Below, piece after piece: positions 18,051 through 20,143 of a DNA stretch of 64,000 nucleotides. The position numbers and the translations under genes are program-made. Numbering within the stretch: the stretch's first letter is position 1; each line of letters starts with the position of its first letter. Location: NCBI GenBank assembly GCA_017532825.1, contig JAFXIT010000024.1, positions 31,846-95,845 on the forward strand, in the 5' to 3' direction. The notes under the pieces are model-generated. The model did not search any database. It worked only from the letters and a program-made list of their open reading frames with translations, and was not told the DNA's origin. This DNA is from Clostridia bacterium (GTDB taxonomy: Bacteria; Bacillota; Clostridia; Oscillospirales; QAMX01).

Positions 18051-19226
18051 TTAGTTTTCTTTGTATACTTTGATTATGATATCTGCCGCACGGTCGATCT
18101 GTTCGAGAGTGTGGGTGGCGGTATAGCTTGTTCTGAGCAGACACTCGCCCGGGTTGACGGCGGGCGGCAGAACGGGGTTGACGTATACCCCCTCGGCAAG
18201 AAGCTTTGCGGTGATGGTAAGCGTCCTTACCATATCGTAGGTCATAATGGGTACGATGGCGGTACTGCTTTTTCCGTAGGGTATACCGGCCTGCCCGAGG
18301 CGGTATCTCATGCGCTCGGCCACCTTAAGGAGATTTTCTCTCCTTTCGGGCTCGGCGCGGATTATCCGCAGCGCGGCAAGCGCCGAGGCGGCGTTTGCGG
18401 GAGGAATGCTTGCGCTGAAGATAAAGGGGCGGGACTTGTGGCGGACGTAGTTTATTATCCTTTCGTTTGCCGCAATACATCCTCCGAGGGAGGCAAGCGA
18501 CTTTGAGAAGGTGGTCATTATCACGTCGACCTCGTCCTCAAGACCGTAATAGCTCGCCGTACCGCTTCCATCCTTGCCTATCATGCCCACGCCGTGGGCG
18601 TCGTCTACCATAACGCCCGCGCCGTACTTTTTGGCAAGACGGCATATTTCGGGAAGGTTTGCGATGTCTCCGCCCATGGAAAACACGCCGTCGGTAACGA
18701 TAAGCTTGCCCGACTCCTCAGGAACGTAGGAAAGGGCGCGTTCAAGGTCCTCCATATCGCTGTGGTTGTATTTAAGAGTACGCTTTGCATAGCTCAAACG
18801 GCAACCATCAACAATGGAGGCATGGTTTTCACGGTCTGATATTATGTAGTCATGCATTCCTGCCAGACAGGAAATAACGCCAAGGTTGCTTTGAAAGCCG
18901 GTAGACCATGTCACCGCACCGTCTTTTTTAAAAAAGTCGGCAAGCTCGTTTTCAAGGGCAACGTGGAGGTCAAGTGTACCGTTTAAAAAACGAGATCCGG
19001 AACAGCCGGTACCGTATTTCTCAAGCGCCTCCTTTGCTGCGGCGATGGTACGAGGATCAGATGTTAGTCCCATGTAGTTGTTCGAACCGATCATAATCGT
19101 ACTTCGTCCGTCAATGACGACTTCGGTATCCTGACCGCTCTCAAGTGCATGGAAATAGGGATATATCCCCATCTCTTTTACTTTTTGGGGTTCATTAAAC
19201 TCATTGCACTTATCAAAAATCGACAT
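18051..19226 (-). CDS. PLP-dependent alpha-oxoamine synthase, serine-palmitoyltransferase-like
   Basis: Start at ATG 19226 ([10 protein letters not shown]) after AAAGGAGAGG. It has [53 protein letters not shown] and [11 protein letters not shown] (PLP Lys). Confidence 0.8.
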   Translation of the reverse strand: [391 protein letters not shown]

Positions 19227-19263
19227 TTTCCCTCTCCTTTTTGCTATGTTTTTATCTTTCTGA

Positions 19264-19306
19264 AAATTATTATACCACAATAGTTTTCTTTGTGGTATAA
19301 TAATTT
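19264..19306. promoter_or_regulatory. Perfect 17-bp inverted repeat carrying two divergent extended -10 boxes, between the AOS and SDR genes
   Basis: AAATTATTATACCACAA (19264-19280), 9-nt spacer, TTGTGGTATAATAATTT (19290-19306). Each arm reads TGGTATAAT toward its own gene. Confidence 0.7.
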
Positions 19307-19333
19307 TAGAAAAAATTGTTGGGAGGTGTGACT

Positions 19334-20143
19334 GTGGAACAAAAGAAGGTATGTCTGGTAACCGGTGGTTCTTCGGGCATTGGGCTTGAAACGATGAAGG
19401 CGCTGAAGGCCTCAGGGTTTTGTGTATACGGCACATCAAGACGTATACCACCTGGCGAGGTCGTTCAACTGAACGGATTTGACTGCCTTTATCTTGACCT
19501 TGCCGATGCCGACTCTGCTAAATCGGCAATTGATACCGTCGTACAAAGAGATGGCAGAATTGACCTGCTGGTGAACAACGCCGGCTTCGGAGTTTCCGGT
19601 GCAGCGGAGGACATGCCGTTCGAAGATGCCATTTCGCAGATGGACGCCAACTTTTTCGGTGCTCTGCGAGTAATGCGAGCAGCCCTGCCGTATATGCGTG
19701 AGCAAGGTGGTGGACGTATAATTAACATTGGCTCACTTGCAGCAGAGTTTGCCGTCCCCTTTCAAAGCATCTATTCTGCGTCAAAGGCCGCACTGCGGTC
19801 GCTCACAAGCGCCATGAGAGCTGAATGTGCTCCCTTTGGAATAGAGCTCTCCGTGGTAGAGCCCGGCGATACCAAGACCGGCTTTACCGATTCAAGAAAA
19901 AAGCCTGACGTTTCCTACAGTCCCTACGCCAAGGGCTTTGAAAAGGGCATTTCAAAGATGGAGCGTGACGAACGCAACGGCGCACCGCCCAAAAGAGTTG
20001 CAGACGCAGTAGTCTGTATTGCTCTCTGTCGCAAGATGCCACCAATACGAACCGTTGGCTTAAAAAACAAGCTGCTTTGCTTTGCAAGGCGGTTGTTACC
20101 GACATCACTTGCCGACAGGATAGTACGGCAGATGTATTCGTAA
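19334..20143 (+). CDS. Classical short-chain dehydrogenase/reductase
   Basis: TGGSSGIG, NNAG and YSASK motifs. GTG 19334 lies 7 nt after GGAGG; the ORF-track TTG 19316 is possible. Confidence 0.8.
   Translation: MEQKKVCLVTGGSSGIGLETMKALKASGFCVYGTSRRIPPGEVVQLNGFDCLYLDLADADSAKSAIDTVVQRDGRIDLLVNNAGFGVSGAAEDMPFEDAISQMDANFFGALRVMRAALPYMREQGGGRIINIGSLAAEFAVPFQSIYSASKAALRSLTSAMRAECAPFGIELSVVEPGDTKTGFTDSRKKPDVSYSPYAKGFEKGISKMERDERNGAPPKRVADAVVCIALCRKMPPIRTVGLKNKLLCFARRLLPTSLADRIVRQMYS

Follow-up and report, generated by a model that had tools for sequence, protein, structure and literature searches.

A 64,000-nucleotide stretch of a Clostridia bacterium genome (contig JAFXIT010000024.1, positions 31,846 to 95,845; hereafter the window) contains a divergent gene pair that probably makes a serine-derived, sphinganine-type long-chain base, as judged from sequence comparison. 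One gene encodes a pyridoxal 5'-phosphate (PLP)-dependent alpha-oxoamine synthase (AOS) resembling serine palmitoyltransferase (SPT), and the other a classical short-chain dehydrogenase/reductase (SDR) resembling KdsR. The best explanation for the arrangement is that the two form a co-regulated two-step module. An earlier note on this DNA had described a 391-aa AOS and, 107 bp away on the opposite strand, an SDR. The open reading frame (ORF) from the AOS ATG agrees with this, and the public call on the contig gives an identical product; the two genes point away from each other, and their start codons (ATG for AOS, GTG for the SDR) are 107 bp apart. The sequence blocks listed for the AOS are all found (KEMGIYPYF at residues 17–25, GSNNYMGLT at 47–55 and two further at 72–99 and 239–249), as are the SDR motifs TGGSSGIG (10–17), NNAG (81–84) and YSASK (147–151). 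The longest ORF for the SDR begins at a TTG at 19316, and the GTG start has GGGAGG in front of it. Homology of both products is well past chance, with E = 1e-163 for AOS to the SPT model and 4e-46 for the SDR to adh_short.

The AOS was searched against 18,950 NCBIfam models. Its top model was NF047600 (SerpalmtaseCFB), the Bacteroidota-type SPT, at 544 bits, which is 150 bits above any other. Kbl gave 395 bits (cut-off 460), the beta-proteobacterial type of SPT 389, BioF 381 (cut-off 426), ALAS 280 and CqsA, NF005526, 186 (cut-off 428). Ten AOS relatives from the related loci were scored in the same way. They come from Bacillota (six), Desulfobacterota-like, Proteobacteria and Bacteroidota metagenome-assembled genomes (MAGs), and the SPT model is again first for them by margins of about 75 to 200 bits, with scores of 481–625 that all lie under its cut-off of 640. 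The best solved structure for AOS is the SPT of Sphingobacterium multivorum (PDB 3a2b/8guh), with 437 bits, 52% identity along its full length and one single-residue gap. The SPT of Sphingomonas paucimobilis follows at 305 bits, then Escherichia coli Kbl at 269, SulA/CFAT at about 210–215, BioF at about 205 and CqsA at 119. Kbl of E. coli also reaches 271 bits against the S. multivorum SPT itself, and a true SPT of this type is therefore as close to Kbl as AOS is. The suggestion in the earlier note that AOS stands closer to bacterial SPTs than to Kbl or BioF is thus borne out by profile scores and solved structures, and also by active-site and signature residues and by a bootstrapped tree.

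The same scores bear on the nature of the product, for which the earlier note had offered either an amino-alcohol lipid or a hydroxyketone-type signal. A CAI-1-like alpha-hydroxyketone quorum signal would come from a CqsA-type synthase and a reductase. The combination of an AOS with a reductase is compatible with such a system, and the AOS family includes CqsA, but CqsA is the most distant AOS class from our protein, both by profile and by solved structure, and the window showed no CqsS-like sensor. We rejected the CqsA reading on this weak similarity and consider it highly improbable. The amino-alcohol lipid half of the proposal is supported and the hydroxyketone half is not.

Inspection of the substrate pocket found the PLP, serine and acyl-wall residues of SPT all kept in AOS. 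The structure paper on the S. multivorum SPT (PMC10196870) names 26 residues, and AOS is identical at 22 of them. These 22 take in, by SPT numbering, every PLP/serine contact (Asn52, Gly80, Ser81, His138, Ser185, Asp210, His213, Thr241, Ser243, Lys244 and Ala274), including the whole serine hydroxyl/carboxylate network (Asn52, Gly80, Ser81 and Ser243), together with Tyr27 and Phe83 of the acyl wall. Lys242, His135, Asp208 and His211 of AOS align with Lys244, His138, Asp210 and His213 of the SPT. Ser241 and Ser243 of AOS flank Lys242 as in SPTs, where Kbl has G-K-A. At 39 positions the two characterised SPTs share a residue that neither Kbl nor BioF of E. coli has, and AOS carries it at 30 of these; of 180 Kbl-specific positions, AOS matches Kbl at only 20. 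Twelve SPT-type positions, including T-F-S-K-S around the catalytic lysine, are invariant across the Bacillota AOS clade.

The pocket also separates AOS from the sulfonolipid enzymes. A cysteate acyltransferase followed by a 3-ketocapnine reductase would give capnine; SulA has the SPT fold and a near-identical active site, and ketocapnine reductases are KDSR-like SDRs (PMC9304779, PMC11211663). However, a lysine in SulA (Lys281) in place of an alanine in Spt is the single active-site difference reported between the two (PMC9304779), and this position is Ala272 in AOS and invariantly alanine in the Bacillota clade. Solved SulA/CFAT structures also score less than half of the 437 bits reached by SPT. 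The SulA reading was rejected on the lysine/alanine discriminator, and we give capnine synthesis very little credence.

A less remote alternative, although still an unlikely one, is that the chemistry is the same and the substrate is not. AOS would then use glycine, alanine, threonine, homoserine or another amino acid, or a different acyl substrate, and the SDR would yield, instead of canonical sphinganine, a long-chain amino alcohol that is 1-deoxy or modified in some other way and serves as lipid or signal. SPTs take alanine, glycine and homoserine at low efficiency (PMC10196870), and Spt-like enzymes that work on other amino acids have been suggested in environmental bacteria (PMC11334938). 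The clade lies under the curated SPT cut-off and forms a distinct branch with 100% support, and no ceramide synthase is nearby. Against a change of amino acid, all contacts of the S. multivorum serine hydroxyl/carboxylate network are conserved and the SulA-type lysine is absent.

We placed AOS in a neighbour-joining tree of 43 sequences (390 columns, 200 bootstraps). The Bacillota AOS sequences form one clade with 100% support. This clade joins the S. multivorum SPT and relatives from Gram-negative MAGs at 85%, and the S. paucimobilis SPT comes next at 90%, while E. coli Kbl, E. coli BioF and an actinobacterial homologue fall outside this bracket. The Bacillota clade is therefore bracketed by two biochemically characterised SPTs in a tree built from sequence. 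A Black Sea study assigned 'Spt-like' proteins by the same bracketing criterion (PMC11334938). The tree also speaks to the possibility that AOS is a divergent Kbl (glycine C-acetyltransferase) or BioF with the SDR as an unrelated or amino-acid dehydrogenase neighbour. Models for Kbl, BioF and 'BioF/Kbl-related' proteins do still reach 372–395 bits, and databases often name such proteins 8-amino-7-oxononanoate synthase. Yet these scores lie under the Kbl and BioF cut-offs and 150 bits short of the SPT model, few Kbl-specific residues are shared, and a genuine SPT is just as similar to Kbl. Known SDR-type threonine dehydrogenases, moreover, are extended SDRs of about 310–350 aa and not classical ones of 269 aa. 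The earlier note had held that nesting within the Kbl or BioF clade, together with a tdh or bio gene context to explain it, would refute its proposal; AOS is outside both groups, and the 64-kb window holds no tdh, bioA, bioB or bioD. On scores, residues, tree placement and context we rejected the Kbl/BioF reading and regard it as very unlikely.

The partner protein is a classical SDR by its TGxxxGxG and NNAG motifs and its Ser-Tyr-Lys catalytic set. It carries S-R-R after strand beta-2, which usually goes with the use of NADP(H), suggesting that the enzyme uses NADPH. Its best NCBIfam model is NF049977, KdsR of the Bacteroides BT_0972 type, with an end-to-end match of 232 bits; the generic models PRK06179 and PRK06182 give 222 and 219 bits. 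By itself, this model score is weak evidence for a KdsR assignment. The AOS-adjacent SDR orthologues score 226–303 bits on the KdsR model, and in four of them (L031, L032, L038 and L039) KdsR is clearly best, at 259–303 bits and 10–40 bits over the next model. One orthologue (L028, from a second assembly of the same organism) appears truncated to 222 aa. We traced this to a 10-N scaffold gap with duplicated ends at about 5091–5144, an assembly artefact and no pseudogene.

Gene context is stronger evidence than model score that the SDR partners AOS. Among the 22 AOS-anchored Bacillota loci used for pairing counts, an orthologous KdsR-like SDR directly adjoins AOS in 12, in three arrangements. 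It is divergent from AOS in the window and in L007, L031 and L032, the last two being MAG chromosomes of 3.0–3.6 Mb that carry the pair in an unrelated gyrase/LytR context. In L008, L010, L011, L012, L014, L016 and L017, which belong to Oscillospiraceae, Christensenellales, Pullichristensenella and Aphodomorpha, the SDR follows AOS and its start codon overlaps or abuts the AOS stop. An upstream SDR occurs in a Haloplasmataceae MAG (L005). A search with SDR homologues found the divergent pair in two sequenced strains, Clostridium sp. USBA 49 and Clostridiales bacterium oral taxon 876 F0540, whose AOS proteins have 62–63% identity to that of the window and 53–55% to the S. multivorum SPT. In 11 paired loci, the distances between AOS proteins correlate with those between the SDRs (r = 0.83, Mantel p of about 0.0005). 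This is in keeping with joint inheritance of the two genes, although some of the correlation would arise from shared species phylogeny alone.

Other genes stand beside AOS in single lineages. In a human-gut MAG (UMGS693, L001), a FabG-like SDR of 246 aa (6582–7322) precedes AOS instead of the KdsR-like type, and may be a non-orthologous reductase replacement. In F0540 (L039, 669–5705), AOS overlaps by 26 nt the first of two same-strand genes for MsbA/SmdAB-like ABC half-transporters. The transporter pair may export or flip a lipid and be transcribed together with the SPT-like gene; the arrangement is found only in that lineage.

Taken together, these data are best explained by the following route. 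AOS, presumably a homodimer, would bind L-serine as an external aldimine on PLP, which would be held in a Schiff base by Lys242, stacked on its ring by His135 and kept in place by Asp208 and His211. L-serine and a long-chain acyl thioester would condense, releasing CO2, to give 3-ketodihydrosphingosine, and the SDR would reduce the 3-keto group with NADPH to dihydrosphingosine. The predicted order is reduction and then acylation, and not acylation before reduction as proposed for Caulobacter. Reduction before acylation is the order in Bacteroides and eukaryotes (PMC9278070, PMC10191378).

The steps beyond the long-chain base were sought in the window, by matching its larger ORFs to Pfam and NCBIfam with public gene calls added for 8–29 kb, and in the related loci; a genome scan gave only 26 loci, none at species level. 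The window sweep turned up no acyl carrier protein (ACP), acyl-CoA ligase, ceramide kinase or head-group transferase. The bacterial ceramide synthase bCerS is of the GNAT type, and an spt-bcerS-cerR ceramide cluster of the Caulobacter type has reportedly been described (Stankeviciute 2022). Among the non-Bacillota relatives, seven loci from Desulfobacterota, Proteobacteria and Bacteroidota MAGs (L018–L023 and L025) have AOS flanked on both sides, as in L018 at 7007–10308, by a 326-aa reductase of the epimerase/3-beta-HSD/NDUFA9 type and a 388-aa protein with a weak GNAT match and no NCBIfam model. These flanks match the layout expected of Caulobacter bCerS and an NDUFA9-like CerR (PMC11087976). 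In tblastn searches the two L018 flanking proteins match the other six loci, and neither finds a counterpart in the window or in any Bacillota locus. One GNAT gene of the window was tried as a ceramide synthase and rejected: its product is an Acetyltransf_9-type protein whose GNAT domain is N-terminal and which has no NCBIfam match, and the bCerS-like neighbour from L018 finds nothing in the window (tblastn, E <= 1e-3). Since the loci hold no ceramide synthase or head-group gene, only a free long-chain base can be predicted from them. The end product would be either free long-chain bases or ceramide made through an unrecognised N-acyltransferase. In calling the pair a minimal module, the earlier note went further than the evidence, as later steps may be encoded elsewhere. 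Whether a large, monophyletic clade of Gram-positive Clostridia makes sphingoid bases de novo through such an Spt/KdsR-type pair, without a known bacterial ceramide synthase or CerR, seems to us an evenly balanced question on present sequence evidence. The clade in this proposal includes gut and rumen Oscillospiraceae and Christensenellales MAGs and the cultured Clostridium thermarum, C. swellfunianum, C. prolinivorans, Fonticella and Caldicoprobacter.

Several points weigh against assigning the pair to sphinganine synthesis. Both proteins lie under the equivalog cut-offs of their best models, AOS at 544 against 640 bits and the SDR at 232 against 400, and for the SDR of the window KdsR leads PRK06179 by only 10 bits, an order that flips in its closest relatives. 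To our knowledge, published lipidomes of model clostridia, which may or may not carry the genes, report no sphingolipids. The tree is a distance-based one with only four characterised references. Ten of the 22 Bacillota loci have no adjacent KdsR-like SDR, and a ceramide synthase, bCerS, CerR, ACP or head-group gene was found neither in the window nor in any Bacillota locus. Amino-acid specificity in this family can hinge on a single residue, as between SulA and Spt (PMC9304779), and a cyanobacterial (Nostoc) 'putative SPT' proved inactive, though that protein lies outside the SPT clade (PMC8895605).

Public data hold more than 8,000 AOS candidates at E <= 1e-30, a total that counts proteins from elsewhere in the AOS superfamily as well. 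Cultured carriers with names include Clostridium prolinivorans, C. swellfunianum, C. thermarum, Fonticella tunisiensis and Oceanirhabdus, and further Caldicoprobacter guelmensis, C. faecalis and C. oshimai. The only names given to their proteins are 'aminotransferase class I/II-fold PLP-dependent enzyme' and '8-amino-7-oxononanoate synthase'. The earlier note had remarked that such chemistry is not an established trait of spore-forming Clostridia, and we likewise found no report of SPT or sphingolipid synthesis in Clostridia or Firmicutes in the searchable literature, where an earlier bioinformatic mention is possible. What we describe is probably a known pathway in an unexpected phylum, with its first two genes unusually tightly paired. 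Sphingolipid synthesis has so far been credited mainly to Gram-negative bacteria, and the clostridial pair may extend it to Gram-positives. Host immunity and lipid metabolism respond to the sphingolipids of gut bacteria, which have been attributed to Bacteroidota (PMC10865984, PMC10626005). If the prediction is true, Bacteroidota would not be the sole source in the gut microbiota, and the accounting of gut and rumen sphingolipids would need revision. The purpose of bacterial sphingolipids could then be studied in a new context, a Gram-positive cell without an outer membrane, and the gap at N-acylation would point to a new ceramide synthase. The claim is directly testable, since the pair is present in sequenced strains that the records name.

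The spacer between the two genes has a guanine-plus-cytosine (GC) content of 28% and contains an imperfect inverted repeat (Table 1). Both arms carry TGGTATAAT, pointing outward; TGnTATAAT is an extended -10 element. Judged by its sequence, the repeat probably provides two symmetrically placed, divergent extended -10 promoters, or an operator common to both genes for some regulator. Such a putative palindromic promoter region common to both genes suggests joint expression of AOS and the SDR. Five related loci gave no comparable repeat, and conservation of the intergenic palindrome was rejected. In Clostridium sp. USBA 49 (L038), the 850-bp AOS/SDR intergenic region has its own repeated palindromic element at 5689–5944, an array of perfect 17–20-nt arms (TAGTAAAATAATAATCC / GGATTATTATTTTACTA) whose orientation alternates every 29–31 nt. 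On the other side of AOS, a GC-rich hairpin probably serves as terminator for both AOS and dpaB and so insulates the pair from dpaAB. The earlier note took the host for a spore-former, and dpaA and dpaB next door, together with ypeB elsewhere in the window, agree with this. A sporulation link of the pair through the adjacent dpaAB was considered and rejected because the pair occurs in unrelated contexts elsewhere and a terminator-like hairpin lies between it and dpaB.

The pair had also been described as visibly more AT-rich than its neighbours. This is true, but the difference is only modest: AOS and the SDR are both 51.7% GC, compared with 54.3% for the window (standard deviation 2.7% for 1.2-kb windows) and 55–59% for the flanking genes. 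Third-position GC is 58% in AOS and 51% in the SDR, and 63–77% in five of the six neighbouring genes measured; it is 60% in one upstream ORF, orf261. The strong GC dip comes mostly from the spacer and the 5' half of AOS (47%).

Table 1. Positions of the gene pair, its predicted sequence elements and other features of the window
Feature	Position	Strand	Details
AOS, SPT-like PLP-dependent alpha-oxoamine synthase	18051-19226	minus	391 aa, ATG start; ORF and identical public gene call
Lys242 codon, predicted PLP Schiff-base lysine	18501-18503	minus	Aligns with Lys244 of Sphingobacterium SPT; motif T-F-S-K-S
SDR, classical, KdsR-like	19334-20143	plus	269 aa, GTG start; as in public gene call
Imperfect 27-nt inverted repeat	19254-19280 and 19290-19316		85% complementary, 9-nt spacer; inside divergent intergenic region
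G+C-rich hairpin with T-run	18020-18047		12-bp stem; between stop codons of convergent dpaB and AOS; consensus scan only
dpaA and dpaB	16534-18017		Adjoin the AOS/SDR pair
Conserved ORF	15671-16456		261 aa
Conserved ORF	21573-22547		324 aa
GNAT gene	26129-27265		Acetyltransf_9-type
HlyIII/PAQR-family membrane protein	36010-36744		17 kb from the pair
SLH-domain protein	37096-39030
GGGtGRT-family protein	39885-40985
Two tandem GH38 alpha-mannosidase genes	44218-50456		1046 and 1034 aa
ypeB	54240-55604

Two conserved ORFs near the pair are without a Pfam or NCBIfam match, and the product of the shorter one starts with a lipoprotein-like signal sequence (…LFTMASC). The alpha-mannosidase genes and the GGGtGRT-family gene are unrelated to the pair, and the window also encodes an SLH-domain protein. 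Eukaryotic adiponectin receptors of the PAQR family have ceramidase activity; the HlyIII/PAQR-family gene of the window shows no evidence of a link to the pair, and the family is widespread in bacteria.

Among known systems, E. coli Kbl/Tdh and BioF share the PLP fold and the Claisen-type chemistry, but Kbl and BioF have only 38% and 32% identity to AOS and their tdh or bio gene context is absent. SulA/CFAT with its ketocapnine reductase follows a like two-step logic, in which an AOS and a KDSR-like SDR lead to an amino-alcohol lipid; it differs in the lysine that AOS replaces with the Spt-type alanine, and its sequence similarity is much lower. The first enzyme of the Caulobacter-type cluster is homologous to AOS, and the non-Bacillota relatives carry that layout, whereas no Bacillota copy stands beside a bCerS-like GNAT or an NDUFA9-type CerR. 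The Bacillota have a classical SDR instead, and its presence in CerR's place implies reduction before acylation. The S. multivorum SPT differs from AOS at Met271, a main-chain contact that is Ile in AOS, and in part of the N-terminal hydrophobic core (Ile15, Val16, Leu19 and Phe338), and AOS belongs to its own fully supported Bacillota clade. The closest parallel in pathway logic is Bacteroides thetaiotaomicron, in which Spt (BT_0870) is followed by the 3-ketosphinganine reductase KdsR (BT_0972) (PMC9278070). The same two enzyme classes are predicted to act in the same order in the window, first condensing and then reducing. Unlike B. thetaiotaomicron, the host is a Gram-positive spore-former, its two proteins score below the equivalog cut-offs and their function is a prediction from sequence. 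The genes also sit differently: in Bacteroides they are about 100 genes apart by locus numbers, whereas in the window they are adjacent and share a putative promoter region.

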